DNA of 64,000 bases from Candidatus Harpocratesius repetitus (GTDB taxonomy: Archaea; Asgardarchaeota; Lokiarchaeia; Sigyniarchaeales; Promethearchaeaceae): the NCBI GenBank assembly GCA_021498095.1, contig JAIZWK010000001.1:2744810-2808809 (forward strand), written 5' to 3'. The notes beneath the pieces are model-generated. The model searched no databases. It was given only the letters and a program-made list of their open reading frames with translations, and had not been told where the DNA came from. The stretch's first letter is position 1; every line of letters begins with the position of its first letter. Position numbers and translations under genes: made by a program. Below, piece by piece: positions 3,146 to 49,530 of this stretch.

Positions 3146-6100
3146 TTATTCTTTATCATCTAAAATTAAATCATTGAAAACTGCAAAAAATATTTGTCTA
3201 TTTTTTACCGGAGCCATTAACACACTAAGTTTAAATTCTTTTAATCCAATCATTGTTATTATTTCTAATTTTTCTGAATAAATTTGTCCTTTCTTTAATC
3301 CTCTTAATTTCTCTAAAATTTTATCATATGTATTCATTTTTTTTTGTAATAAAGGTTCAAGCTTTCTTGCTCTATTTCTCTCTAGGTTTCTATGAGAAAT
3401 GTTTAATTTTATTTCATCGTTATTCAATTTATTTTGAAATGCCAAATTTGTAAAAAGAAAGTTTAGATTATTTTTAGTTTTAATTTCGAAAATACATATT
3501 GGAATTTCAATATATCTTAATACTTCAATTAAATCACTATATATATCGATTTTTTTGTTTTTGTTTAATGCAAAACCAATTAATATTGCCACATTAAGAG
3601 CTAGTTTTCGTAAATGAGATGTAAATTCAAATGATTTTTGAGTAGATATTATTATTAAATGTCCAGCTATGATGTTATTCTTGAAGATTGGAACTTCAAC
3701 CATCTTTTCAATTCCTAAATGTTCCATAATCGTTCTAGCATCAAGTGGAAAATCCTTTGGCGTTAATGAACGAATAATTTCTGAAGGTCTTTTTTCATGA
3801 GCGATTATTTCAAAGTAATTAACAATAGGCATTTCCAGCAGGCTTAATTCTTGATTATTCTCTGGATTTTTTTGCCATATTTCACGAATTTCAAATGTGA
3901 TATTTCTATAAGAAAAATCTCGTTCTAGAGCATATATATAATCTACCTTAATTGTTTTACCTAAAGTACGAAGAATTGGAGCAATATTCACTCTTGAATG
4001 ATGAGAATCATGAATTAACATAGATGAAATCATAGAAATTACATTAGAGTATTGTAGATTCAATTCTCTATCGCGCAATTCTCTTTCTTTCCTTCGAATT
4101 TCTGTAATATCGCGTGAAACACATAAGAATGAAACGATTTCTCCTTCACTATTAAGTAATGGTCTGGTTTTTGTTTGAAGTAATAAATAAATTCCAGATT
4201 GTTTTCTGAATCTATATTCTATATTTGAGTCATTATTATTACCAGATTTGATTTTTCTAAGGTTTCCCAAGAATAATTCTTTATCGTCAGGATGAATTAA
4301 ATAATGATGATTTAATTGATCAAGAATTTCTTTTGAATAATTTAATTTTTCATAAACGCTATTATTTGCAAATAGAATTTTTCCATTTTCTTTAATAATA
4401 AATATCAAATCATCTGAAGTTTCAACCACATTTCGATATTTAGATTCAGATTCCCTTATTTTTTCTTCATCTTTTTTACGAGCGGTAATATTTCTTGTTA
4501 CTCCTCGAAAACCCTTAAGTTTTCCATCTTGAGTTAAAATACCTACACCATGTGTCTCTAAATAGACAATATTACCGTTTTTATGATAACATTCAAATAT
4601 ATAATTTTGAAATCCGTGATAACCTTGTTGATATAATAAACCTTTATTTATGTGATTGGAAAAATCTTTCCAAATTCTCTTTTTTACTTCAGGTTTAAGA
4701 GAAAGCATATCAAAAGATCTACCAATAAAATAATCTGGAGAATATCCAAGAATTTTATAGCAAGTGGGACTAATATAAACAAAATTTCCATGTATATCAA
4801 TTTCCCAAATAATATCACTGCTACTTTCAACTAAAGCATGAAATTTACGTTCACTTTCAGCCAATTTTATTCGAGCTAATTTTTCTTTAGTAATATCAAC
4901 TTGAGAAATAAACAATAATGGGCCTTTTTCGCTTTCAAATTTTGTTATGGAAATTAGTGCCCAATATGTAGAACCTAAAGCATTTTTAAATTGGATTTCG
5001 TATTTATCAATTCGTTCATTTTTTTCAAGAAGGTCTAAAATTATCTTTCGTTCTTCCATATTTGCATAAAGTGTCCTGGGATCAATATTTTTTACTTCTT
5101 CGCGTGAACATCCAAGTAATTTTAATTGGGTTTCATTTATTTCTAAAATATGTCCATTAAGATCGACAATTGCAATTCCAATTGGTGAATTTTGGAATAA
5201 TTTTTCATATTTAATCTCTGTTTCAGTTAAAATTGCTTGTGTATTTGTCATTGATGTTAAATCTTCTGTAATTACAATGATGTGCTCTATTATTTTTTTG
5301 TCATTATCAGATTGATTAATTAATTTTGATTTATTTGTTTTAAAAACAGGGAAAATGGTTAATTTAAATGATAGAGTTTCATTTAATGAAAGGTTTGGAA
5401 TTAAATTGTGATCCAATTGAATTAAAGGAATTTTTACAATTTCTCCTTTTAATACTTTTTTAACTTTTTCCATTAAACCTAATTTAATTAAGATTCTATC
5501 TTTGAACAAATTTAGTTCAAAATTTTTTTCTTTTAGTTTGTTCTTAAAAAATCTTTTAATAACAGGGTTACATGATTCAAAATACCCATTTCCATCAAAA
5601 ATAGTTGTTCCAAATGGATTAAAATTAATTACATTTTCTAAAATCTGCCTTTCTTGCGATAATTGAATTTCCACAGATTCTCTTTCCAAAGCATTTCCGA
5701 GTAAATCAGTATAGATTTTCAATAAAGTAAAATAATCTTTATTAACAATTTGATTCTCAAATCTAATTAATAGCGTTCCTATAATCATATCTTGATGTCG
5801 AATTGGAAAGAAAACTGAATAAGTTTCATCCATATTTCGGAATATATCTTGAAAAATTATTGGATAAAGTGGGTGATTCTTTGTATAACGAAAAGAAATC
5901 CATTCTTCACGTTGTAAAATTTGAAAAAATGGTGATTTCTTCTTTAAGAAGAATGAAGGATTTCCAATAAATGAGTAGTCATATCCATCTTTGATCCAAT
6001 AATTAATAAGATCTACTTTTATTGAATCAATTGAAAATGAATTTTCGGAATTTTGAATTATATTTTTAATTGTTCTATTTTGATGTTCTTTAAATTCGAA

Positions 6101-7843
6101 AAGCATAATTTCTGAGCATTTAATAAACTCAGAAATATCTGCAAAAGATTCTTCTATTATTCTGGAGATATCATATGATTTAATGAATTTAGCGGAGATT
6201 TCAGCTAATTTTTGTTGAAATTCAAGTCGAAATTTCAATTCTTTTTCAATTTTTCTTCGATTAGTTATATCAATAGCAAATACCATATGAGCAATAGTTT
6301 TTTTTTTCCATTTTATTAATCGAGTAGATAATAGATAATATTTTTGCAAAAATGAATTGTAATGTTCAAAACGAATAGATAAATTTTCAATGAAATGATT
6401 TTCATCCATTTTTGATAATGCAGGAGTTACTTTCTGTTGAAAATCAAATACAATGTCATCAATTGGGCCATAATGAATAGATAAATTTTTTAACTTTTGA
6501 TTAGCAAAAAGAATTTTTTGTTGATTTGGTTGATAAACATAAGTAATTTCAGGAAAACTATCAAAAATAGAAAGTAATTGCTCTCGCTCAAAATCTAATT
6601 CTGCTTTAACTTTAGTTTGTTGTGTTTTATCTTCAAACATGAAAATAATTCTTTCAACCTTCTTTTGATGATTAAATATTGGAAAAGCTATAATTCTTAA
6701 TGACAAATCCCAAAGAGGATATCTATTAAATTGATGTTTTTTCAAATTTAACAAAGGTATTTCTATTGTATTTCCATTAAGTAGACTTTGATATTTTTCT
6801 TCTAAATTATGTTCTTTTATGTTTGAAATATCAAATAGATGAAAATCTGATGGAAGTTGAAATCCAAGAATATTAATTAATGCATTGTTTGATTCGATAA
6901 AATTTCCTTCTTCATCAAAAATGGCAATACCATATGGATTAAGATGAAAGAAATCTTTTTGAGTCTTTGTTTCGATTTCTATACGTTCTTCTAGTTTTTT
7001 TTGATAATCTTCTAATTTTCGAGTGAATTGTAATTGAACTGATATGTCTTCAAATATAATAACAGGATAATACACTTGTTCTTCATTATCATAGAGAGAA
7101 AAAAAAGTAAGATTAAACCATTTTTTATTTAAATTATCTGTAGTTTTCCTTTCTAAATCATTAATTTCAAAATTAAGAGAAACTTTTTTCAAAACAAAAG
7201 AATTTCCCTTTTGAATTTCTCGCATTCCTTCATAAAACCCTTCTTTCTGTAATAATGTTGAATCATCATATAATGAATAGCTCTCAGATGGTTCATGATT
7301 AAAAATTTGATAAAAAGCTTTATTTGCATGTAAAAAATAACCTTTTGGATCAAAAATCGCTATTGCATATGGATTTGACTCAATTATTTTATCAAATAGA
7401 CGCTTATCTTCCAAGAATCGAGAGATTTGAGAAAATGAACGAGATTTAGTTTTGTTTGTATTATTATTTGAATTACTGTGATTCTCAATAATTAATAGAA
7501 ATAACTTTTGTGATGAATTTTGATGAGCTAAAGATAAATGAGCAATAATTGAATATTGTTGCGAAAAAGTATTAATTGTGAGTTCTAAAACCTCACAGTC
7601 TAAAAATTTTTCCTGTTCAATTATACCTTCAATCATATTTATTGATTTTTGCTCTAAAAATTCAAATATTGAGTGTTTTTCTAATTCTTCTGCATTGTAT
7701 TCTAAAAAATTTGCAGTAAAACTATTTACAAAAATGATATCTCCGTGGCTGGAAAAAATCAAGACTGGCTTCTCAATGTACTCAAATATACTTAAATCAA
7801 TAGTATTTAATTTCCAATCTGTCTTTTCCATTCCATAACTCAC
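3146..7843 (-). CDS. Large multi-PAS/GAF sensor protein (1565 aa) with no recognisable kinase or other output domain
   Basis: Repeated PAS-like modules run through the protein (motifs such as NPYGIAIFDxxG and a recurring FxNxAxxxxLGY pattern). The C-terminal ~150 aa look GAF-like. I could not find histidine-kinase H-box or ATPase G-boxes. Confidence 0.55.
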   Translation of the reverse strand: MSYGMEKTDWKLNTIDLSIFEYIEKPVLIFSSHGDIIFVNSFTANFLEYNAEELEKHSIFEFLEQKSINMIEGIIEQEKFLDCEVLELTINTFSQQYSIIAHLSLAHQNSSQKLFLLIIENHSNSNNNTNKTKSRSFSQISRFLEDKRLFDKIIESNPYAIAIFDPKGYFLHANKAFYQIFNHEPSESYSLYDDSTLLQKEGFYEGMREIQKGNSFVLKKVSLNFEINDLERKTTDNLNKKWFNLTFFSLYDNEEQVYYPVIIFEDISVQLQFTRKLEDYQKKLEERIEIETKTQKDFFHLNPYGIAIFDEEGNFIESNNALINILGFQLPSDFHLFDISNIKEHNLEEKYQSLLNGNTIEIPLLNLKKHQFNRYPLWDLSLRIIAFPIFNHQKKVERIIFMFEDKTQQTKVKAELDFEREQLLSIFDSFPEITYVYQPNQQKILFANQKLKNLSIHYGPIDDIVFDFQQKVTPALSKMDENHFIENLSIRFEHYNSFLQKYYLLSTRLIKWKKKTIAHMVFAIDITNRRKIEKELKFRLEFQQKLAEISAKFIKSYDISRIIEESFADISEFIKCSEIMLFEFKEHQNRTIKNIIQNSENSFSIDSIKVDLINYWIKDGYDYSFIGNPSFFLKKKSPFFQILQREEWISFRYTKNHPLYPIIFQDIFRNMDETYSVFFPIRHQDMIIGTLLIRFENQIVNKDYFTLLKIYTDLLGNALERESVEIQLSQERQILENVINFNPFGTTIFDGNGYFESCNPVIKRFFKNKLKEKNFELNLFKDRILIKLGLMEKVKKVLKGEIVKIPLIQLDHNLIPNLSLNETLSFKLTIFPVFKTNKSKLINQSDNDKKIIEHIIVITEDLTSMTNTQAILTETEIKYEKLFQNSPIGIAIVDLNGHILEINETQLKLLGCSREEVKNIDPRTLYANMEERKIILDLLEKNERIDKYEIQFKNALGSTYWALISITKFESEKGPLLFISQVDITKEKLARIKLAESERKFHALVESSSDIIWEIDIHGNFVYISPTCYKILGYSPDYFIGRSFDMLSLKPEVKKRIWKDFSNHINKGLLYQQGYHGFQNYIFECYHKNGNIVYLETHGVGILTQDGKLKGFRGVTRNITARKKDEEKIRESESKYRNVVETSDDLIFIIKENGKILFANNSVYEKLNYSKEILDQLNHHYLIHPDDKELFLGNLRKIKSGNNNDSNIEYRFRKQSGIYLLLQTKTRPLLNSEGEIVSFLCVSRDITEIRRKERELRDRELNLQYSNVISMISSMLIHDSHHSRVNIAPILRTLGKTIKVDYIYALERDFSYRNITFEIREIWQKNPENNQELSLLEMPIVNYFEIIAHEKRPSEIIRSLTPKDFPLDARTIMEHLGIEKMVEVPIFKNNIIAGHLIIISTQKSFEFTSHLRKLALNVAILIGFALNKNKKIDIYSDLIEVLRYIEIPICIFEIKTKNNLNFLFTNLAFQNKLNNDEIKLNISHRNLERNRARKLEPLLQKKMNTYDKILEKLRGLKKGQIYSEKLEIITMIGLKEFKLSVLMAPVKNRQIFFAVFNDLILDDKE

Positions 7844-8289
7844 ATACTGATTCTTTTTTTATTTTTTCTCTTTATCTCTTTTTCTTCTTACTAAAAATTA
7901 AATAATCATCAATTAAATAGCTGATAATATTATTTGAATTTTAATGTTTTAATACATTATTGTAATTACTAATAACTTTTTTTATGAATGTTTTGTTAGA
8001 CATTTCAAATTATTTTGCAATATTGCAATTATTTCATAATCCATAAAATTAAATTTATATTTTTTTAAGGATTTATCGTTGGAGAAAGAAAAAATTTATA
8101 AAGTATTTCTTTCAAGAACAATGCTCTAATAATAAAGATTATTAATTTTTTTCAAATTTAGAATTATATAATACAAGATAATTGTAAATCTTTAAGAAAT
8201 ATATAAATCAGTCAAAAAATAAAATCAAAATAATTCACCGTATTAAAAATGTAAATAAATAATGATTTCTTCCATAGGACGCTATAGTT

Positions 8290-9081
8290 ATGAATAAAAA
8301 ACTTGAACATCCAACAAAAGCTTTTCAATATCTTGATAAATGGCATAAAACTTCTCTTTCATCTATGGCAGATAATCAGCTTGCATATCTTCTTAAATTG
8401 CTAATAAACGATATGGAAAATCAAAATTATTCAATTTTTAAAGAATATATGAATCAAATTCTTTCTCATTTACCAATTAAAATTTTGCCTTTATTTTTAG
8501 AAAACATAATTCATTCAAACGATCCAGAATGGTTTCAACAAAATTGTATAAATTTTTTAATTCATGCAAATCGTCCTATTTACCAAATCAAAGGTCTACA
8601 AATTATTCAAAAAAATAATGATGAAACGCTGATTCCTCTAGCAATTCCTCTGATTTATCATTCACATCTTCCTTTACAACAAGAAGCTATAAAAACAATA
8701 ATTCAATTTCCATCAATCAGCGAACCAATTTTAGAAAACGCTTTAAGATCAAGAAGTGAAAAGAAATTAAATATAGTTAAGAAAGTGCTTAATCAGTTAA
8801 ATCCAAACAATATAAAACTAGCCGTAGCAGAATTAAATAATCCTGATTTTTTAATTAGAGTAAATGCATTGAAAATTTTAGGAAGCACTGGGGATAGGAA
8901 ATGGATAACAAAAATTCTCCCATTTTTAGAAGACGATGATATGGCGGTTAGAAAGGCAGCAATCGAAGCGCTTTCACAATTGGGAGGAAGAAAAGCAAAA
9001 CAAATACTAAGTCAAACTCTTATTCGAGAAGATTATCCTCCATTAAAACTGATTATTCAAAAGCAATTAAAAAAATGGTAA
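8290..9081 (+). CDS. HEAT/PBS-lyase-type repeat protein
   Basis: 263 aa, alpha-helical. It has repeats with an LxxLxxxGDxxxIxxLxxLLxDxDxxVRxxAxxAL-type signature, for example FLEDDDMAVRKAAIEALSQLG. Confidence 0.5.
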   Translation: MNKKLEHPTKAFQYLDKWHKTSLSSMADNQLAYLLKLLINDMENQNYSIFKEYMNQILSHLPIKILPLFLENIIHSNDPEWFQQNCINFLIHANRPIYQIKGLQIIQKNNDETLIPLAIPLIYHSHLPLQQEAIKTIIQFPSISEPILENALRSRSEKKLNIVKKVLNQLNPNNIKLAVAELNNPDFLIRVNALKILGSTGDRKWITKILPFLEDDDMAVRKAAIEALSQLGGRKAKQILSQTLIREDYPPLKLIIQKQLKKW

Positions 9082-9092
9082 TATTCTTTATT

Positions 9093-9728
9093 TCAATTTT
9101 GACTAATTAATTCTCCATTTTGATACACTTTACGTTTTAAAATTAATTCAATTGGAATATCTAAACCTTGAAAAATTTCAACTAAAGTTTGTGCTATACG
9201 TGTATTTTCTCTGATTTCGCGCAGATGAACGCGAAAATTAGAAGTATTTCGTTTTGAAAAGATCCATTTTTCTCGAAAATCTTTAGATTCACCTTCTTTT
9301 TTAGAAAATCCTAATAATTGCAATGATGAATGATATTTAAGCGAATTTAATGTTAATTTTTTATTCGTATCTCTATTATCTTCGGTTATATCTTCTACCA
9401 AAATAAAACTTAGATCTGAGATTTTTTCCGATGAAAGTGGAATAATCATAAATATAATTTTTAATTGTATTTTCCATTGATTTTTATCAAGATCTATCCT
9501 CAAATGCTTGATAGGTAAAATGAACCAGAGTAAAATTCCAAGAAATATAACATCCCAAAGTAATAACGCTAAATCAGAAGGATAACGTTTAATCCAAGCT
9601 AAAATTGAGAAAATTAGAAAAACTAGCAAAAATATGCTAATAGAATAAATCTGTTCTAGATTATCTTTCCAGTTTCGGATAATATCAATACGGTAGGGAG
9701 AATTTGGATCGAACTTAATTTCAACCAT
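9093..9728 (-). CDS. Membrane protein with two N-terminal TM helices and a possible PH-like (bPH) cytoplasmic domain
   Basis: 211 aa with two hydrophobic helices at residues ~30-75 followed by a beta-rich soluble part. It is divergent from the GTPase gene. Confidence 0.35.
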   Translation of the reverse strand: MVEIKFDPNSPYRIDIIRNWKDNLEQIYSISIFLLVFLIFSILAWIKRYPSDLALLLWDVIFLGILLWFILPIKHLRIDLDKNQWKIQLKIIFMIIPLSSEKISDLSFILVEDITEDNRDTNKKLTLNSLKYHSSLQLLGFSKKEGESKDFREKWIFSKRNTSNFRVHLREIRENTRIAQTLVEIFQGLDIPIELILKRKVYQNGELISQN

Positions 9729-9903
9729 AATATACTACTTACTTAGAAATTGGCTAATGATAAATTTTTTGATTAAAGAACACTAAATTAATTAAGGAAG
9801 TTGACCAACTTTTGTTAATACAATTAAAATAATTTAATCACATACATAATTCTGTTCTGAAAGTGGCTTCTATTATTCTCGCCGATGATAACAGTGAAAA
9901 AAA

Positions 9904-10443
9904 ATGTCAAGAGATATTGATTATACCTTCAAAATTCTTATGTTGGGTTCTGCATCTACAGGTAAATCTTCTTTATCTGATAGATACGTGCATGGAATAT
10001 TTTCTGAAGATATTAAACTTACAGTTGGAGTTGAATTCTTTGTAAAAACAATTCATTATAAAGATAAATTTGTGAAACTCCAAATTTGGGATCTCGGCGG
10101 AGAATCCAAATTTCGCTTTCTTCTGCCAACCTATTGTCTTGGATCGTCTGGTGCAATATTTCTTTTTGATCTTACCCGACCAGAAACATTACATGAACTT
10201 GATTCTTGGATCGGAATTGTTAGAGAAAAAAATAGTCAAATACCTATTTTCTTAGTAGGAAATAAAAAAGATCTAACAGATATTCGAAAAGTTCCTGAAG
10301 ATCATGGGATTCAAACTGCAATTCAAAATAATTTGACCGAATATATTGAAACATCAGCAAAATCCGGCGAAAATGTTGAATTTATTTTTCAAAGTTTAAC
10401 AGAACATATGTTAAAAAAGATTGAACGATTAAAACTGCATTAA
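9904..10443 (+). CDS. Rab/Ras-like small GTPase
   Basis: G1 is GSASTGKSS, the switch II/G3 motif is WDLGGE, G4 is GNKKD and G5 is SAK. Length is 179 aa. This is typical of Asgard-type eukaryote-like small GTPases. Confidence 0.8.
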   Translation: MSRDIDYTFKILMLGSASTGKSSLSDRYVHGIFSEDIKLTVGVEFFVKTIHYKDKFVKLQIWDLGGESKFRFLLPTYCLGSSGAIFLFDLTRPETLHELDSWIGIVREKNSQIPIFLVGNKKDLTDIRKVPEDHGIQTAIQNNLTEYIETSAKSGENVEFIFQSLTEHMLKKIERLKLH

Positions 10444-10454
10444 GAGGGGTAATC

Positions 10455-11435
10455 ATGAATACAGATGGAAGGATTGCATTTTTGGTTGATCTTTTTCATT
10501 CAATTGATATTCGAGAAAAAGGAATTGAATATATTTATGATCTACTCCTTCAAAAACAAAGTGTTGAAGATATTAAAGAATTCATTGATAATAGCGAACT
10601 TAGTTTGAAAAGAACCTATAAAGTAATCCAATTACTTGAAAAACTTGGCTTAATTCAAGTTTATAATCGACCAATGATTGTAAATATAAAGGATCCTATA
10701 TCATCATGGGAAATTTTAATTTCAGAAAAAATAAAACAGATTAGAACAGAAGCAGATCGAAGAATAGAAAATTGTGAGATTTGTTTTCATAATTTTGTTG
10801 ATGAATATAAATTAAATCCAGAAAGTATATCAGTTCCACCTGTTGAATTTATAAATATAAATCCTAATGATTACTCTCCAGATTTTTTCAAAAATGAAAT
10901 TATCGGTAAAGCTAAATCTTTTTGTATTGCAAAAGGTGATATAATAAAGACTTCTTTTAATGAAAAATTAAAATTATTAATTAAAAATATATCAGTTTCT
11001 GATTTAGAATCACAAAATACATTTCTTTCATATTGTAAAGAATGGAAAGAAGCAATTCCTTCCCTTACTTTAGAAGTTTTAATAACTGAAGAATATTTGC
11101 ATAATAAATTAGAGATATTCAAAGAAAAAGAGATTTCTTTTATTGAAGATTTAGTAAAAAGCGAAATTAAATTTGATTCAATTAAAATAAAAGTCACAAA
11201 AAATGTCCTAACTAATTTTCTATTAAAAAACAATAATGAATTAATTCAGTACTCCACCTCTCCAGATAATGCCCTAATTGGTCTTTTTATTTCAAGACAA
11301 CATGAGATTTGTGAGATCTTTACTAAAAAATATACTTATGAATTTGATAATGCTATTAATTTGGATAGTTATTATATTAAAAACTTTAATCGTTCTCTCA
11401 CAATTTTTGAAATCTTCTATTTGACTTTAATATAA
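10455..11435 (+). CDS. Hypothetical protein with N-terminal winged-helix (TrmB/MarR-like) domain, co-transcribed with the Rab-like GTPase
   Basis: The gap to the GTPase stop is 11 bp and a GAGGGG SD sits 6 nt before the ATG. The N-terminal ~70 aa have the pattern IEYIYDLLLQKQSVEDIKEF...LKRTYKVIQLLEKLGLIQV, typical of wHTH regulators. The remaining ~250 aa are unassigned. Confidence 0.4.
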   Translation: MNTDGRIAFLVDLFHSIDIREKGIEYIYDLLLQKQSVEDIKEFIDNSELSLKRTYKVIQLLEKLGLIQVYNRPMIVNIKDPISSWEILISEKIKQIRTEADRRIENCEICFHNFVDEYKLNPESISVPPVEFININPNDYSPDFFKNEIIGKAKSFCIAKGDIIKTSFNEKLKLLIKNISVSDLESQNTFLSYCKEWKEAIPSLTLEVLITEEYLHNKLEIFKEKEISFIEDLVKSEIKFDSIKIKVTKNVLTNFLLKNNNELIQYSTSPDNALIGLFISRQHEICEIFTKKYTYEFDNAINLDSYYIKNFNRSLTIFEIFYLTLI

Positions 11436-11692
11436 CAACAAATTATTATATCTCTTATGACCACAATTCTGATTTCTATGAACTTCAAATCAACTAAGCA
11501 AATACATATTGGATATGAATTAGATATTTCACTTTTTGACATTAAAAAATACCATCGAAATTACCTTCAAAAGATTATTTGAATGGATTATTTATATACA
11601 AAAAAGGGCAAATATTCCCAATTGGATTCAACCTGCAATACATTTTAAAAACGGCGGAAGAAAATACTTTAGTTATGAAGTTTCGCAAGCTT

Positions 11693-42861: not shown

Positions 42862-45800
42862 ATGGCTGAATTTAAATTTCCCCGGTGGAAACCATTCACA
42901 TTTATAGATTCAAACCCGCCAATATTCTATCCAAGTTTTATTAATGAATTACTCCAAAAATGTGATAATTTTTCCCATACATCAGATATAGAAACGTTAT
43001 TTTGGCAGATTCTCACTTTAAAATATCTCAAATTATTAAAAACTAGTGAATTCGAAAATTATTATCAAACATTAATTAAATATGAAGTTACAGAAAATGA
43101 TAAATCGGGTTTTTTAAATCCTCAATTGAAATACTCAAAGAAAAAGAAGAATACAACTTTTTCGATTACTGATTCAGATATCTTAAGTACATATTACATC
43201 TTAAATATATTCGCCTTAACAGGAAAATTAACGGAATATTTAGCAACTTTGAATGGAAATCGGAAAAAATATTTGGAAAATTATATTTTAGATTTACAAT
43301 TTCATTTAAAAAAGAATAGTCGGAAATCTCAAGCAGAAATTCTCTTTTACATTACTACACTATATCTATTATTAGGAAATTCTCCACGGACGATTCAGCA
43401 CCAAGTAATACAGCAAATAAAGCCAAGTATCAAGCAATCTAAAGGACCGAATACTGTTTTTAAATTACTTTTATTTCGATTTTTTAATATGCAAGATCCT
43501 TTGAAAGAAAGCGATTTGATTTCATTACACCAACTTCAAAAAACAAATGGTGGTTTTAATTTTAAAAATTCAACTATTGCAGATCCATCGAATACTTTTT
43601 GGATCGTTTTCACCTTAGAAACTTATAGTTGGTTTTTACCCTATCGTCCAGGACCAATATATTCATATCTTTTATCTTTTCTTCGACATGAATATCAACA
43701 TACACAAAATGATTCACAATATCTTTTCTCTAAGAATACTATTAAGTCTATTTTTCAATTAATAGTCTTGTATGCATGTATTTTCGATTCTCTATTGAAT
43801 GATGTAGAAAACTTAATTTTTACTAATATATCTAAGAAAGGGATGTTAAATGCAGACAAACTTTCGAATGAAGGAGGATTTGCAGGAGCAGAGAATGAAA
43901 TTATCTCTTTATTAAATCAAAAATTTCAATTTAAATTAGAAATATTAGATAATAACATAGTATTTCGGCGATATTTAAATCGTTTAAATCCATTTAAAGA
44001 AAAATTGGCTGTTCAAATTAGGAAAGAAATAAGAAATTCTCTGCAATTCGATATTAATGAATTTGTAAAAAATTATAACCGGACAAAAAGTCGAACAAAT
44101 CGAATTAAAGTTGAATTTATATGTGATTTAATCCAAGAAATGGAACAAGAATTTTTCTTTACAGGAAGTCTTAAATCTCGTAATCGTTTTTTCTTTTTCC
44201 ATTCCTATTTATATATTCGGGAAAATTTCATCGAAAAAATCATTGTATGTGACAAACAACTGAATTGGCAAGATATTCAACATGAAAAAAAACGGATGGA
44301 AGAAATCCTTATAGACATATTCAATATGATAAATGAGATTAAAGAGGCAAAAACCCGAATTTTAAATGATATTGAATCTATGATTTTGGTTGGAATGAAT
44401 CCCGAAAAAATTGAAGAACATATGAAATTTTTAATCAAAAATACCCTGATTGATGCTACATTTTTCCGAAAAACAATTGAAACTTTTACTAGTGAATTTG
44501 TTTATTTAAATCCAAATTATGCTCTTAATTCACGAATTAAAGAGTGGGAACTCCTATATTCAAATCTTCAATCAGATTTTCGAAATATTAGAAAAATACT
44601 AAATATAAAATTAGACAACTTAAAAGATGAAATTCAACAAAGAGACTTTCTCTTTTCTTTAGAAAAGGAAATAAATACATGCATAAACCAAATTACTGAA
44701 AATGCAATAAACTTTGAAGAAAATTTCCGACAAACATTTGACCAAGAATATCATCGAAAATTAATAGATCAACTAAAAGAACAATTGAAACTAACAAAAG
44801 ATAATTTAAATATGCTTGATAAACGGATTAAAAATCGATCTTTGAGAATTACAAGTAAAAAAACAAAAATCACTCAAATGCGTAATAAACTAATTAATAA
44901 GTGGATTTCGCATAAACAAGATATTACTCAATTACTTGCTTTTTATCAAGAAGGCTTTGATTATTGGGATAAATCTCTATCAAAATTTGAATTATTACAA
45001 AGTAGTTTTCTTCAAAGAATTAATAAAGTTGAAAAAGAAATCAAAAAAGAAATATCTAAAAATGATTATTCAGTCGCATTTGAAATGAATAGAAGAAAAT
45101 TTGCTGAAATTTTTAATGATATGAATTTATTAACCAATAATTTTGAAAAGGAATTTAATAAAAAACGCAAAGGAGCGCGTAAATTAAATCCTTTATATCA
45201 AGCACTGATAACAGAGTGGAATTCGCTTCAATATTCACTAGAAGCCCTAATTCAACAAAAGAAGCGTTCGTTCCAAAAATCTATTACTATGGATCAAATT
45301 TCTTTTCATACCGAGAATTTTCAACTTATTGTAGAATCCCAAATCACCATTCTGAATCAAAAGCTTATTGAATTCAAAAAAAGATTTTCATCCCTTATTA
45401 AACATGATGAAAACATATCCCAATATAATTATAATCATGAAGCTGAAAAATTAAAAAAGGATTTTTTAAAAATACAAGCTCAAATAAAAGATGAATACAA
45501 TAAAATTAAAAAACTCAAATTAAATATAGATTTATCTCTATCTCTTAAGCAATTTCAAGAATTTGAACAGCATTTTAATCATGAAATTCAAGAAATAATT
45601 GATCATTATAATCGAAAAGAAAAAATTCGAAAAATTCTTAAATATGCTGAAGATAAAAATCAAAACTTGTTTGAAATTGCTGAGATCGCTCAAATATTAA
45701 AAATGAGCATATCTGAAACAGATTCATTGCTAAAACAATTAGTATCTCAAAATTTACTTAACGCACGAATATATAATAAAACAAGAAAAATTGAAATACA

Positions 45801-47277
45801 CAATAAGAATTGGAGAAATTATCTCAAACTAAAACAAGAAAGCGAAATTCGTTGTCGGGAATTACAAGCAAAAGTAAATTTAATTCAAAATTATTTTAAT
45901 AAAGCAGTAATCAATCATGAATTTTTGGAAAAAAGCGACCAGCTCGATACACTTATTGAAGAGTTTAATGAATATATAGAAACCAAATCTAATGAATTTG
46001 AAACTTTTATACAAGATAATCAAATAAATACGAAAAACAATCTGATATATGAAGAATACTTGCAATTCTATCAAAAAATAAATAAGATGAAAGAACAAGT
46101 AAACTCACTACAGAATACAACAAATCAAGCAAAAGAATTTGAACAAATACTTAAGGATTTTACTTCACGTTTAGAAGATTTTGGAAATTCAATAATTAAT
46201 AAAATTGAGCAGGAATTTCAAACTACATCAAAATTATCGCATAAAAATCATACAAAATACTTGCAAAATCAATGGAGTTTTATTCAAAATTTCTTAGATG
46301 ATATTCTTTTACAAGAAAAAACCCGTAGAAAAGAAATTTTTCAAAAAAACGGAAATTTTGGAGAAATTTTCTTTGATATTGAAGATGATTTTAAAAATAG
46401 AATTCAAAATATCATGCAAGATTTTAAGACAACTTTCCAAAATTATGAAGAAGAATTAAAAATAAATGAAATAAAAAACCTTCGCCAAAAAATGGACGAA
46501 ATTGTTATCGAAAAGCAAAACCTTGTTGGACAAAATCAAAGAAAAATTGATTTAGAAATAAAAAATAAAATTAGAGCAAAAGAATATATCATAGCAGCCA
46601 AAAAATTAAATCAACGAGCAAAAAGTCTATATAAAATATTGAAAAATGCTGAAAAAGAAATAAAATTAGCAAACAAAGAGTTTAATGCAAAATCAAAAGT
46701 ATTTGGTATAAAATACTCACCATATATATTAGAAGAATGGACAAACTTTCAAAAACAATTTGAAGAATCAGTAATTTCTACTTTAAATAAAGTATATGCA
46801 AGAGAACTTGTGTTAAACTTTACTTTTTTCTCGATAAAATCCTTTAAAGAGCCTTTTGTCCCATTAAAACTTATAGCTGAAAACCTATTTTTAAGCCATG
46901 ATCAAGTACAACATATTCTTATGAGTCTAATAAGCGAAGGAATGCTTTCAGGAAAAATTGATTTAGAACATGATGTTTATTTTGAAGGAACAATAAGTTT
47001 TGATGATAAAAGTATTGCTCGATTAGAAATTATAAAGAAAACAAATGTTAAAACATATTTAAGAATCAGGCGTTTGGTGAATGTATTTGCAATTCTCGGT
47101 CCGATTTTAACAGGATTTGCTTCTTTCTTAACAATATTATGGTATTTGATCCGTTTAGCCACAAATTTAGTCTTCATCGCAATTCCTATTGCAGTTCTTA
47201 TAATATTGTTTATTTATCTATGGATTCGAAAAGGAAGGGAACAATTTGCTCAACTAGAACCAGAATCGAGTGAATAG
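42862..47277 (+). CDS. Giant (1471 aa) protein: N-terminal prenyltransferase-like alpha/alpha repeat region, ~1100-aa coiled-coil, C-terminal TM tail-anchor
   Basis: N-terminal repeats of the type DIETLFWQILTL, SDILSTYYILNIFALTG, AEILFYITTLYLLLG and LQKTNGGFNF. There are long K/E/N/Q-rich heptad-like segments. A final hydrophobic stretch (ILGPILTGFASFLTILWYLIRLATNLVFIAIPIAVLIILFIYLWI) precedes a short tail. Confidence 0.55.
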   Translation: MAEFKFPRWKPFTFIDSNPPIFYPSFINELLQKCDNFSHTSDIETLFWQILTLKYLKLLKTSEFENYYQTLIKYEVTENDKSGFLNPQLKYSKKKKNTTFSITDSDILSTYYILNIFALTGKLTEYLATLNGNRKKYLENYILDLQFHLKKNSRKSQAEILFYITTLYLLLGNSPRTIQHQVIQQIKPSIKQSKGPNTVFKLLLFRFFNMQDPLKESDLISLHQLQKTNGGFNFKNSTIADPSNTFWIVFTLETYSWFLPYRPGPIYSYLLSFLRHEYQHTQNDSQYLFSKNTIKSIFQLIVLYACIFDSLLNDVENLIFTNISKKGMLNADKLSNEGGFAGAENEIISLLNQKFQFKLEILDNNIVFRRYLNRLNPFKEKLAVQIRKEIRNSLQFDINEFVKNYNRTKSRTNRIKVEFICDLIQEMEQEFFFTGSLKSRNRFFFFHSYLYIRENFIEKIIVCDKQLNWQDIQHEKKRMEEILIDIFNMINEIKEAKTRILNDIESMILVGMNPEKIEEHMKFLIKNTLIDATFFRKTIETFTSEFVYLNPNYALNSRIKEWELLYSNLQSDFRNIRKILNIKLDNLKDEIQQRDFLFSLEKEINTCINQITENAINFEENFRQTFDQEYHRKLIDQLKEQLKLTKDNLNMLDKRIKNRSLRITSKKTKITQMRNKLINKWISHKQDITQLLAFYQEGFDYWDKSLSKFELLQSSFLQRINKVEKEIKKEISKNDYSVAFEMNRRKFAEIFNDMNLLTNNFEKEFNKKRKGARKLNPLYQALITEWNSLQYSLEALIQQKKRSFQKSITMDQISFHTENFQLIVESQITILNQKLIEFKKRFSSLIKHDENISQYNYNHEAEKLKKDFLKIQAQIKDEYNKIKKLKLNIDLSLSLKQFQEFEQHFNHEIQEIIDHYNRKEKIRKILKYAEDKNQNLFEIAEIAQILKMSISETDSLLKQLVSQNLLNARIYNKTRKIEIHNKNWRNYLKLKQESEIRCRELQAKVNLIQNYFNKAVINHEFLEKSDQLDTLIEEFNEYIETKSNEFETFIQDNQINTKNNLIYEEYLQFYQKINKMKEQVNSLQNTTNQAKEFEQILKDFTSRLEDFGNSIINKIEQEFQTTSKLSHKNHTKYLQNQWSFIQNFLDDILLQEKTRRKEIFQKNGNFGEIFFDIEDDFKNRIQNIMQDFKTTFQNYEEELKINEIKNLRQKMDEIVIEKQNLVGQNQRKIDLEIKNKIRAKEYIIAAKKLNQRAKSLYKILKNAEKEIKLANKEFNAKSKVFGIKYSPYILEEWTNFQKQFEESVISTLNKVYARELVLNFTFFSIKSFKEPFVPLKLIAENLFLSHDQVQHILMSLISEGMLSGKIDLEHDVYFEGTISFDDKSIARLEIIKKTNVKTYLRIRRLVNVFAILGPILTGFASFLTILWYLIRLATNLVFIAIPIAVLIILFIYLWIRKGREQFAQLEPESSE

Positions 47278-47325: not shown

Positions 47326-49530
47326 TTATCCATATACATAGGTTAAATATGCTCCAGCAGTTTGAAAAATACCTGCTTTAAGACATCTATCAATAGTAAT
47401 TTCAATTTTGATAGAATCGATCTCTTCATTTCGTGCTTCTGAATATAATGCATCTAATTCAAAATATAGACAGTTACCTTTCAATTCACCACTTAATTCC
47501 ATTGTGGATAAAATCCAATCATAATATTTCTTAGTAATGCCGTATTTTGAAAGTAGAGTGTGTGTTGAATTATTTTCTGAAGTATGGTGCTTATTTTGCA
47601 GAATTCGATTCTTTCCTAAAGAAGTAAGTTCTTTAGTTATATCCGAAATCAAATTATATGCCTTTTTTTTACCATTTTGCTTCTTATTTCTTTTAGTTAG
47701 TTCTTTTTTTTGGGAATAATTGACATTGACCTTTTCTATTATTTGATTAATCTTAACTAATTCTTGGTTTTCTTTATATTTCTGCCTATTTTTTTCAATT
47801 TGTGAGAGAGTTTGTACACTATATTTTGGTTTTTCAATTGTTCTGGGAAATTCTTCAATTGTTTGAATTTTTTCTGGATATGTAAGAAGTGATTGCATTT
47901 TTTCTTCTTTATAATGTGAAACTTGATAATAGATTTCATCTAGTGTATTGGGACTCACTAAACAATAGCATTTTCCAACAGTATGGCGTCCTGTACGGCC
48001 ACGTCGTTGGATCAATCTTATTTCACTTGGTACTGAATCGTAAAAAATTACTGCATTCACATTAGGGATATCTAAACCTTCTTCAGCCACTGATGTTGCT
48101 ATTAAAATACGATATTTTCCGTTAGAAAAATGATTTAGTAATTTTTTTTGATCGTTTTGTGATAACCCTGGATCATTAAGTCGTGAAGCTTGACCAACAA
48201 ATCGATATGCGATTTTTTCAGAAAATAAAATAGCAAAATTTCGATTCAATTCTTCTTCAATATAAGTTCCCATTTCTCTGTATTGGGTAAATACAATCAG
48301 TTTAGCCTTAGGATCTTGTGCCAATTCATCTTGAATAATTCTAATTAATGGATCCATTTTCGGTGATTTATTACACGAGCGAAGTATTTGCTTTACGCCA
48401 TTAATATATTTTGAATGTAAAAATCGCTTTAAGTGCTTATTGCCATAATCGGCCCGATCTTGGAGTTTCTGCAAATATGTCCAAAACATACGAACATCTT
48501 GAGTAGTAAGAATTTCTTTTAAATGTTCAAGATATATTCCATTTATAGCATAACCCATGGCTGTAGCTTTATTTGGTATTTCTCTAGATTGTGAAACATC
48601 AAATAATTCTGCAAGGTGTGGGAAGTTTAATCCACGGAAACCTTGTTTTTGAAGCATATCTTGCTTTTCATCTTCAGTCATGTGAGAATCACAAAGAATA
48701 TCGACCATTTTTAGATCTTGAATCAATTGAATAAATTGAAATTTAGAACTAAATCGACGACGGGGAAGAATATCTTGCTCATGAAGATATTCGAGAATTT
48801 TTCGAATAGCAGTATCTAAAATCATCTGGGCTTTTAGAATTTCATTCGGCAATTCAATTCGCTGAATTATTGTATTAATTGGAAATACATAATCTCTTAC
48901 ATCAAGACTATTTTGATTTCTAAAAACAATTTGTTCTATTTGGAGATTTTGACATAATTCATTAATACGGAATAAATCTTTACCAGGACTGGCTGTCAAA
49001 CCTAAAATTAAAGGACAAGAACACTGAGAAAGATAAACTTCTGCCACATAAGTATAACTATAACGCTTCCTTGCTTTATGAACTTCATCAAATATAATAT
49101 GACCAAAACCTTCTAATGAATAAAGCCCTGCTTCTAAATCGTTTTTAATTATTTGAGGAGTAGAAAAGAAGATATCAGCTTCATTTAAACTTAAAGCACG
49201 TTTCGTTGGAGATAAACCACTGGAAAAAATACAAAGTCGTACATTAGATTTAAAAAATCGATGAAATGTATCGTAATGTTGCTGAACTAGTGGACGAGTG
49301 GGAGCTAGAAACAGAATCTTTGAATGGGGAGCACTTTCAAGTGTGTGAGCAATTGATAACACTGCTATAATTGTCTTTCCTAAACTTGTAGGTAATACAA
49401 CTAATGTATTCTTGTAGGATGCAGTTTGAGCAATATTTAATTGATACTCTCTTTGATCGATAAGATCTGTATTCAATAATTGTTGATTTATTTTTATTGT
49501 TTTTTTGTCGGACATACCAATAACTCTCAC
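47326..49530 (-). CDS. Hef/FANCM/Mph1-family DExH helicase without recognisable ERCC4 nuclease domain
   Basis: It has REYQLNIAQTA...NTLVVLPTSLGKT (motif I), IIFDEVHKA (II), GLTASPG (III) and QRRGRTGR (VI). Length is 734 aa. Confidence 0.8.
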   Translation of the reverse strand: MRVIGMSDKKTIKINQQLLNTDLIDQREYQLNIAQTASYKNTLVVLPTSLGKTIIAVLSIAHTLESAPHSKILFLAPTRPLVQQHYDTFHRFFKSNVRLCIFSSGLSPTKRALSLNEADIFFSTPQIIKNDLEAGLYSLEGFGHIIFDEVHKARKRYSYTYVAEVYLSQCSCPLILGLTASPGKDLFRINELCQNLQIEQIVFRNQNSLDVRDYVFPINTIIQRIELPNEILKAQMILDTAIRKILEYLHEQDILPRRRFSSKFQFIQLIQDLKMVDILCDSHMTEDEKQDMLQKQGFRGLNFPHLAELFDVSQSREIPNKATAMGYAINGIYLEHLKEILTTQDVRMFWTYLQKLQDRADYGNKHLKRFLHSKYINGVKQILRSCNKSPKMDPLIRIIQDELAQDPKAKLIVFTQYREMGTYIEEELNRNFAILFSEKIAYRFVGQASRLNDPGLSQNDQKKLLNHFSNGKYRILIATSVAEEGLDIPNVNAVIFYDSVPSEIRLIQRRGRTGRHTVGKCYCLVSPNTLDEIYYQVSHYKEEKMQSLLTYPEKIQTIEEFPRTIEKPKYSVQTLSQIEKNRQKYKENQELVKINQIIEKVNVNYSQKKELTKRNKKQNGKKKAYNLISDITKELTSLGKNRILQNKHHTSENNSTHTLLSKYGITKKYYDWILSTMELSGELKGNCLYFELDALYSEARNEEIDSIKIEITIDRCLKAGIFQTAGAYLTYVYG

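Follow-up and report, generated by a model that had tools for sequence, protein, structure and literature searches.

The described systems that come closest to the protein considered here are the beta subunits of eukaryotic protein prenyltransferases, the PCI subunits of the 26S proteasome lid, COP9 signalosome (CSN) and eIF3, membrane-anchored rods built of spectrin repeats, the golgins and the bacterial scaffold EzrA. In prenyltransferases the catalytic zinc is bound by Asp, Cys and His residues at the inner-helix starts of repeats 5 and 6, which in the beta subunit of rat RabGGTase we take to be D238, C240 and H290; zinc sites with four ligands are typically structural, not catalytic. Typical golgins are not known to be tightly conserved in length or sequence. 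Research on Loki-type Asgard archaea treats them as the nearest extant relatives of the eukaryotic host cell, and unusual protrusions and an actin-based cytoskeleton have been reported for cultured representatives. EzrA is a bacterial membrane-anchored cytoplasmic scaffold composed of linear repeats of triple-helical bundles (PMC4243239). In this study, we analysed a stretch of 64,000 nucleotides of the Asgard archaeon Candidatus Harpocratesius repetitus (assembly GCA_021498095.1, contig JAIZWK010000001.1, positions 2,744,810 to 2,808,809 of the forward strand; hereafter the window, in which positions are counted from its first letter), and in particular a gene at 42862..47277 (+) that encodes a protein of 1471 amino acids (aa). 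The whole protein falls outside every described family and belongs to an uncharacterised one. Our tentative reading, to which we assign a probability of roughly 0.45, is that it serves in the cytoplasm as a rod-shaped scaffold or tether which is anchored in the membrane, has a fixed length, is specific to Asgard archaea of the Loki type and presents a ligand-binding cup.

The gene and its product

An ATG-started open reading frame (ORF) of 1471 aa plus stop codon spans exactly 42862..47277 (+), in agreement with the coordinates and length given in a preliminary description of the window, and lies in a region of ~27–30% G+C. The ORF is a genuine, conserved gene: its homologues can be aligned end to end, and a chance ORF or low-complexity artefact is ruled out by a family alignment of 67 sequences that is nearly gap-free over 1400 residues and in which the rods are conserved as well as the globular parts. 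A direct sequence search of the PDB with the full 1471-aa protein returned no match, nor did a scan against NCBIfam. The N-terminus lacks a hydrophobic segment and hence a signal peptide. From the N- to the C-terminus the protein is arranged as a toroid, two winged-helix-like modules (WH1 and WH2), a first helical rod, a third winged helix (WH3), a second rod, a fourth winged helix (WH4) and a membrane hairpin.

The N-terminal toroid

Residues ~20–326 (42919..43839, +) are predicted to form a non-catalytic alpha/alpha toroid resembling the beta subunit of protein prenyltransferases. An AlphaFold2 (AF2) model of residues 1–520, based on an alignment of seven sequences, reached a mean predicted local distance difference test score (pLDDT) of 79.7 and a predicted template modelling score (pTM) of 0.72, and displays about 13 helices within residues 25–326 in the alpha/alpha toroid fold; the closest solved structures are the beta subunits of eukaryotic protein prenyltransferases. 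The window protein itself scores 14.2 bits (E 0.03) against Pfam PF00432, which is below the gathering score of 26.5 bits, and two family members that are tied to it by profile at E 4.5e-19 or better, P0059 and P0058, exceed that score with 66.8 and 53.9 bits, respectively. Furthermore, when P0059 (from Helarchaeota) was compared with all PDB sequences, the beta subunit of RabGGTase was the sole match (E 8.8e-8), and it was likewise the sole, albeit weak, match of the family profile (E 0.05). Owing to the AF2 model, the PF00432 scores of the relatives and the RabGGTase match of P0059, the toroid fold and its closeness to eukaryotic protein prenyltransferase beta subunits are well supported. 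The preliminary description had proposed such a toroid for the N-terminal ~330 aa; this proposal is thus borne out, and the kinship has become more specific than was suggested at the time. The protein does not combine an absent toroid with a low coiled-coil signal, the outcome that the same description had named as contrary to it.

The best-kept prenyltransferase-type repeat signature of the window protein is QKTNGGF at residues 226–232 (43537..43557, +), the QxxNGGF variant noted previously, which is recognisable by its conservation among the 67 family members: G231 never varies, and conservation reaches 90% or more at Q226 and G230. Conserved aromatic residues are found where the inner helices begin (W48, Y55, F84, Y111, F246, W247, W257 and Y261). 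Across residues 235–330, which correspond to toroid repeats 5–6, no alignment column has Cys or His in 50% or more of the 67 members. As conserved Cys/His residues are lacking where the zinc ligands of prenyltransferases lie, the toroid appears to be a non-catalytic binding cup, an argument based on sequence register rather than on structural superposition. The only cysteines of the window toroid, C34 and C306, are not conserved. Most family members carry conserved Cys and His residues elsewhere, namely H148, one Cys each at the columns of Y74 and L204, and an HCx4-5Cx2C insert after residue 152. The HCx4-5Cx2C motif lies inside the toroid in 62 of the 67 members, its insertion site corresponding approximately to window position 43318, and it probably represents a structural metal site that one lineage has dispensed with: in the window protein and the three relatives closest to it, H148 alone among these residues is retained, the others having disappeared through substitutions and a deletion of ~10 residues that removes the insert. 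No PPTA-repeat alpha-subunit-like gene adjoins the family gene in the loci that were read, a result which concerns neighbourhoods only, as no whole-genome search was made.

A separate protein of 335 aa, encoded at 34378-35385 (+) and represented by a homologue in the related locus L003, carries a genuine QNRDGGFG motif but gave no significant Pfam, NCBIfam or PDB match. This motif had been described as similar to that of the toroid protein; it is indeed present, yet the likeness stops there, and homology to the toroid is ruled out by an hhalign probability of 1.4% over 24 columns.

Winged-helix modules and helical rods

Four winged-helix-like modules occur along the protein. WH1 (residues 328–397; 43843..44052, +) shows a beta-alpha-alpha-beta order in the DSSP assignment of the AF2 model, is not matched by Pfam and is the least certain of the four. 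WH2 (residues 398–463; 44053..44250, +) displays a long beta hairpin in the AF2 model and is basic across the family, with a median net charge of +8, the other modules being near neutral. WH3 (residues 936–979; 45667..45798, +), with a beta-alpha-alpha-beta-beta order by DSSP, and WH4 (residues 1332–1374; 46855..46983, +) are of the PCI type: each scores above the gathering score of 22 bits of Pfam PF01399 (PCI) when taken alone (23.5 and 30.6 bits, respectively), the full window protein scores 37.8 bits, and six of the seven aligned relatives also match. This match covers the winged-helix half alone (model positions 38–83 of 84), and the TPR-like helical subdomain of PCI is not present before WH3 or WH4, where the preceding helices are 41–42 aa long and part of long bundles. 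When the C-terminal model was compared with the PDB by Foldseek, nearly all of the top 50 matches were PCI subunits from CSN, eIF3 or the lid of the 26S proteasome; none of the matches fell below E 1e-3, and their TM-scores were very low. Between modules, hhalign gave a probability of 67% for WH2 and WH3, a weak profile similarity, and of 20% for WH3 and WH4. When the sequence is read, the putative recognition helices of WH3 and WH4 contain few or no Lys/Arg residues in the window protein.

The two rods comprise residues 469–932 (rod 1; 44266..45657, +) and 982–1328 (rod 2; 45805..46845, +), with nine and seven helices, respectively, in the AF2 model. This model, computed for residues 460–1471 from an alignment of 23 sequences, has a pLDDT of 82.4 and a pTM of 0.37, which indicates that its local structure is confident and its global shape is not. 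Sixteen discrete helices are predicted, with lengths of 42, 31, 75, 30, 65, 36, 75, 26 and 41 aa in rod 1 and of 36, 32, 62, 36, 72, 36 and 42 aa in rod 2; short (26–42 aa) and long (62–75 aa) helices thus alternate in the pattern A, B, (C+A), B, (C+A) and so forth that results from tandem three-helix bundles joined by continuous linking helices. On account of this alternation the rods are predicted to consist of 4 + 3 spectrin-like three-helix repeats of about 116 aa. The spectrin-repeat fold, i.e. antiparallel three-helix bundles of ~106 aa that share a linking helix, is present in the predicted structure, and plectin 5j1i_B (283 residues) was listed in the rod analysis. Pfam searches with the window protein and six relatives gave no match to a spectrin repeat family at E up to 0.1–1. 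Rod lengths vary within the family by only about 1% or less (465 +/- 3.4 aa for rod 1 and 347 +/- 1.5 aa for rod 2), with identities to the window protein of 23% and about 15%, respectively.

It had previously been assumed that a K/E/N/Q-rich coiled coil exceeding 1000 aa follows the toroid. The composition is as stated, residues 470–1300 containing K 12.8, I 11.1, E 10.2, N 10.0, L 9.9 and Q 7.7% with P and G at only 0.5 and 1.0%, and the region is all-helical with heptad periodicity; a single continuous coiled coil is not, however, what the model predicts, the region being interrupted by winged-helix-like modules (four in the protein) and predicted to form 16 discrete bundled helices. Heptad periodicity exceeds the 95% shuffle level in 25% of residues 470–1300 versus 3% of the toroid, with frequent shifts of register, and family-averaged hydrophobicity has a period of 3.5 (z about 10) in the long helices 551–625 and 668–732. 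Matches to apolipoproteins, obtained when a profile of the helical part was compared with PDB sequences, were dismissed as compositional (E 0.004 or worse).

The C-terminal membrane hairpin

A Kyte-Doolittle scan (19-residue windows; cut-off 1.6) located mean values above 2 solely at about residues 1405–1430 and 1437–1458; one other, weaker window above the cut-off, at residues 294–315, lies inside the last helix of the toroid. The two hydrophobic segments (47074..47151 and 47170..47235, both +) are conserved across the family, the first being helical in the AF2 model and the second being followed by a short tail that starts with basic residues. The single C-terminal transmembrane helix of the preliminary description must accordingly be replaced by two, since two hydrophobic helices separated by a short turn are found in every full-length relative that is not cut by a contig end. 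The turn reads RLATN in the window protein and is SGGNP-like in most relatives. Basic residues precede the first and follow the second helix, and the two helices would thus form a membrane hairpin with both ends in the cytoplasm according to the positive-inside rule. Because this anchor lies within the last ~65 residues, its insertion would be essentially post-translational, as in tail-anchored proteins.

Distribution of the family

A search of 5.8 billion proteins with the 1471-aa sequence identified one 100%-identical copy and six further relatives, three of which share 51% identity and the other three about 25%; each of these seven is full length and comes from a metagenome-assembled genome (MAG) of Promethearchaeota. 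When a profile of residues 1–520 was run against 1.84 billion cluster representatives (clustered at 50% identity), 50 clusters were retrieved, about 20 of them full length at 1400–1500 aa, and no canonical prenyltransferase was matched. A genomic scan of one genome per GTDB species yielded 77 distinct loci, in line with the earlier suggestion that homologues be sought in Asgard MAGs, and members are typically about 1460–1500 aa long. Nearly all loci are labelled Promethearchaeota or Promethearchaeia, with a few labelled Hermod-, Hod- or Odinarchaeota and one labelled as a bacterium; a more divergent cluster derives from Helarchaeota. These labels are unreliable, as the C-termini from L007 ('Hermodarchaeota') and L011 ('Promethearchaeota') are almost identical. 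The bacterial entry (L068, DATKTW010000086.1) contains the complete Asgard gene block under the name 'Candidatus Nanopelagicaceae bacterium' and is probably a mis-binned contig. The median identity across all family pairs is 49%; together with the three relatives at 51% identity, the window protein makes up a divergent branch that is ~23% identical to other members.

A 1227-aa relative labelled Hodarchaeota (P0058, at 8001-11684 of locus L081) possesses the same toroid, a weak PCI match and no membrane hairpin, and its C-terminus, by reading of the sequence alone, resembles a small domain of the roadblock/longin type. Since this protein combines the toroid with another C-terminus, the toroid-plus-rod design occurs with other end modules. 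Its neighbourhood holds purine biosynthesis genes and offers no functional clue. Members are currently annotated as 'hypothetical protein' or 'prenyltransferase/squalene oxidase repeat-containing protein', and no description of the family was found in the literature on Asgard archaea in connection with prenyltransferase, PCI or spectrin; with respect to PCI in archaea, one paper was retrieved, which concerns membrane-associated protein kinases in other archaeal ESCRT loci (PMC10936438).

Proposed function and alternative explanations

In the scaffold or tether that we favour, the C-terminal hairpin would anchor the protein while the entire 1400-residue N-terminal part would stay cytoplasmic, as the hairpin is flanked by basic residues on both sides. 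The two rods, of four and three bundles, would reach out from the membrane and act as a spacer or ruler, and each would end in a PCI-type winged helix through which the protein could associate with itself or with partners, the role of these domains in the proteasome lid, CSN and eIF3. At the distal end, two further winged-helix-like modules would lead to the toroid, which may serve as a binding cup held a few tens of nanometres off the membrane, an isoprenoid lipid or protein tail being a candidate ligand. Such a protein would organise the membrane-proximal cytoplasm or join the membrane to another structure. The architecture suggests the scaffold or tether function, and the spectrin-like element of it derives from predicted structure. 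Several observations weigh against this interpretation. The seven predicted rod repeats do not align significantly with one another by hhalign (best probability 27%), and the predicted helix breaks are not marked by conserved Pro or Gly and show no enrichment of these residues, so that the helix boundaries are those of the AF2 model. Additionally, the bundling is taken from a monomer model with a pTM of 0.37, and AF2 is capable of rendering a coiled coil that forms between chains as one folded within a single chain. The working of the cup may vary from lineage to lineage, given that the HCx4-5Cx2C insert of most members has been lost in that of the window, and the gene context supplies no functional clue, the convergent helicase described below being the sole neighbour shared with the window.

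We consider unlikely an extension of the scaffold reading in which the protein belongs to an Asgard-specific membrane skeleton or tethering system. Its head would then be more closely related than any other prokaryotic protein to the beta subunits of eukaryotic protein prenyltransferases and would receive isoprenoid groups, either on prenylated proteins or as archaeal isoprenoid lipids. The homology to these subunits in fold and sequence might also point to a membrane-anchored, active enzyme of the prenyltransferase or terpene-cyclase type whose protein or lipid substrates are modified at a defined distance from the membrane; the conserved aromatics at the inner-helix starts and the potentially metal-binding Cys/His cluster of most members could be enlisted for it. 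Such an enzyme is nevertheless highly improbable: repeats 5–6 are devoid of a conserved Asp/Cys/His triad, the window protein has lost every family-conserved Cys and remains under the PF00432 threshold, the four ligands provided by HCx4-5Cx2C suggest a structural rather than a catalytic zinc, and no gene resembling a PPTA-repeat alpha subunit is adjacent in the loci examined. The winged helices invite a different explanation, namely a tether between chromosome and membrane, or nucleoid organiser, in which these modules bind DNA that is spaced by the rods, possibly together with a Hef-like helicase. Four such modules, the basic character of WH2 throughout the family and the presence of the helicase gene downstream in 59 of 80 loci are consistent with this possibility; conversely, WH3 and WH4 are near neutral, match the PCI type (chiefly a module for contacts between proteins) and have putative recognition helices with few or no Lys/Arg. 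As the helicase gene is convergent it is not co-transcribed, and the metabolic genes of the block are equally conserved, rendering the synteny non-specific; a role in DNA tethering is therefore judged improbable.

The same two PCI-type modules, each of which passes the Pfam gathering score by itself, could nucleate subunit assembly if the protein were the platform of a PCI-type multi-subunit complex, related to the scaffolds of eIF3, CSN or the proteasome lid but bound to a membrane, in keeping with the near-exclusive presence of PCI subunits among the 50 best Foldseek matches of the C-terminal model. The E-values of those matches all exceed 1e-3 with very low TM-scores, however, the Pfam match is limited to the winged-helix part, the helices that precede these modules are of the long bundle type instead of short TPR-like repeats, and neither an MPN gene nor a further PCI gene was detected in the neighbourhood of the family gene, which makes a platform of this kind quite improbable. 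Just as improbable is the picture drawn in the preliminary description, that of a golgin-like vesicle tether formed by a long dimeric coiled coil. It would account for the large helical cytoplasmic region with heptad periodicity and for the membrane anchor at the extreme C-terminus, and it would suit an Asgard host whose window also encodes an ESCRT-II-like protein. Nonetheless, the anchor is a hairpin and not a single helix, the predicted helices are discrete and follow the long/short pattern of three-helix bundles, the heptad signal surpasses the 95% null level in only a quarter of residues 470–1300 and often shifts register, length and sequence are tightly conserved, and no golgin was matched in sequence or fold. 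The probability that remains after the scaffold or tether and these alternatives is left to explanations outside those considered.

Gene neighbourhood and other genes of the window

The family gene is adjoined downstream by a convergent gene (47326..49530, −) for a Hef-like helicase of 734 aa, in which Pfam recognises DEAD/ResIII and Helicase_C domains and no nuclease domain. This is a conserved neighbour, since a homologue is located in the 59 loci mentioned above, mostly 2–113 bp past the stop codon of the family gene. The usual upstream neighbours, secreted Ig-like and peptidase-like proteins, are uninformative. In about 50 loci a GlcD/GlcF-like pair is situated 0.1–9 kb upstream (typically ~2.6 kb), with two secreted-looking proteins in between. 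Two ORFs with 55–72% identity to this FAD-binding (GlcD-like) and Fe-S/CCG (GlcF-like) pair are present in the window at 1-2941 (−), about 40 kb from the family gene and inverted, which indicates a rearrangement in the window lineage. The neighbouring gene block looks like plain inherited synteny.

Other genes of the window include one for a 220-aa protein (32767-33429, +) that matches Pfam EAP30/Vps36, an ESCRT-II type winged helix, at E 1.1e-9; as a eukaryotic-signature gene it establishes that the window comes from an Asgard archaeon, whereas Rfam gave no RNA gene in the window by which the organism could be recognised. Immediately upstream of it, the ORF at 31386-32615 is, by its sequence, a candidate of the SPFH/flotillin type, and adjacent ORFs of 92 and 144 aa within 33470-34207 (+) resemble, by eye, a candidate antitoxin and PIN-domain toxin. 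An ORF of 157 aa (35374-35847, −) contains five MEK repeats in a run (MEKMEKMEKMEKMEK) and gave weak, sub-threshold Pfam matches (PAC_bac, E 0.0015). A second very large ORF, of 1565 aa (3146-7843, −), has relatives in four of the 80 related loci.

Significance and comparison with known systems

With respect to the organisation of Loki-type membranes from inside, the family represents a concrete candidate for a membrane-associated scaffold. Across the Loki- and Helarchaeal loci searched, a single protein joins three modules typical of eukaryotes, i.e. a cup like that of prenyltransferase beta subunits, PCI-type winged helices and spectrin-like rods, and these come with a membrane hairpin and an almost invariant length. 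The family also provides a prokaryotic anchor point from which the origin of eukaryotic protein prenyltransferase beta subunits can be addressed. If its head did indeed receive isoprenoid groups, the membranes of the archaeal relatives of eukaryotes would already have carried spectrin-like rods, PCI-type winged helices and a module for prenyl recognition in combination before protein prenylation and spectrin-based membrane skeletons existed; if the protein were merely a lineage-specific structural component, a family now labelled 'hypothetical' would still have received a clean annotation.

At the level of domains, the protein may be regarded as a divergent, probably non-catalytic branch of the PF00432 toroid superfamily to which PCI-type winged helices have been added. 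It differs from the beta subunits of RabGGTase (GGTase-II), GGTase-I and FTase by ~1100 further residues and a membrane anchor, and by the lack of an Asp/Cys/His zinc site and of an alpha-subunit partner nearby. With the PCI subunits of the 26S proteasome lid, COP9 signalosome and eIF3 it shares a winged helix of the PCI subtype at the end of a helical region, an arrangement that occurs twice here; however, the winged-helix half alone matches, long bundle helices precede it, the protein is membrane-anchored and a horseshoe complex is not indicated. The resemblance to golgins (giantin, golgin-84 and CASP) that had been noted before holds for the very long helical cytoplasmic region, for the anchor at the extreme C-terminus and for the post-translational insertion that this implies, but not beyond: two hydrophobic helices replace one, predicted bundled repeats with winged helices take the place of an extended dimer, sequence and length are strongly conserved, and neither sequence nor fold searches detected golgin homology.

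In its presumed mode of working the protein would be most like membrane-anchored spectrin-repeat proteins (nesprins) and bacterial EzrA, and more loosely like golgins. The likeness to the rods of nesprins/KASH proteins, spectrin, alpha-actinin and plectin is one of predicted structure, as no sequence match was obtained; here winged helices are placed between the rods, a hairpin takes the place of the KASH peptide, and CH/actin-binding domains are absent. Compared with EzrA, the window protein has neither the N-terminal transmembrane helix nor the five triple-helix repeats and gives no match to the EzrA sequence, yet it would resemble EzrA, as the latter has been described (PMC4243239), in being a prokaryotic membrane-anchored scaffold built of triple-helical bundles.

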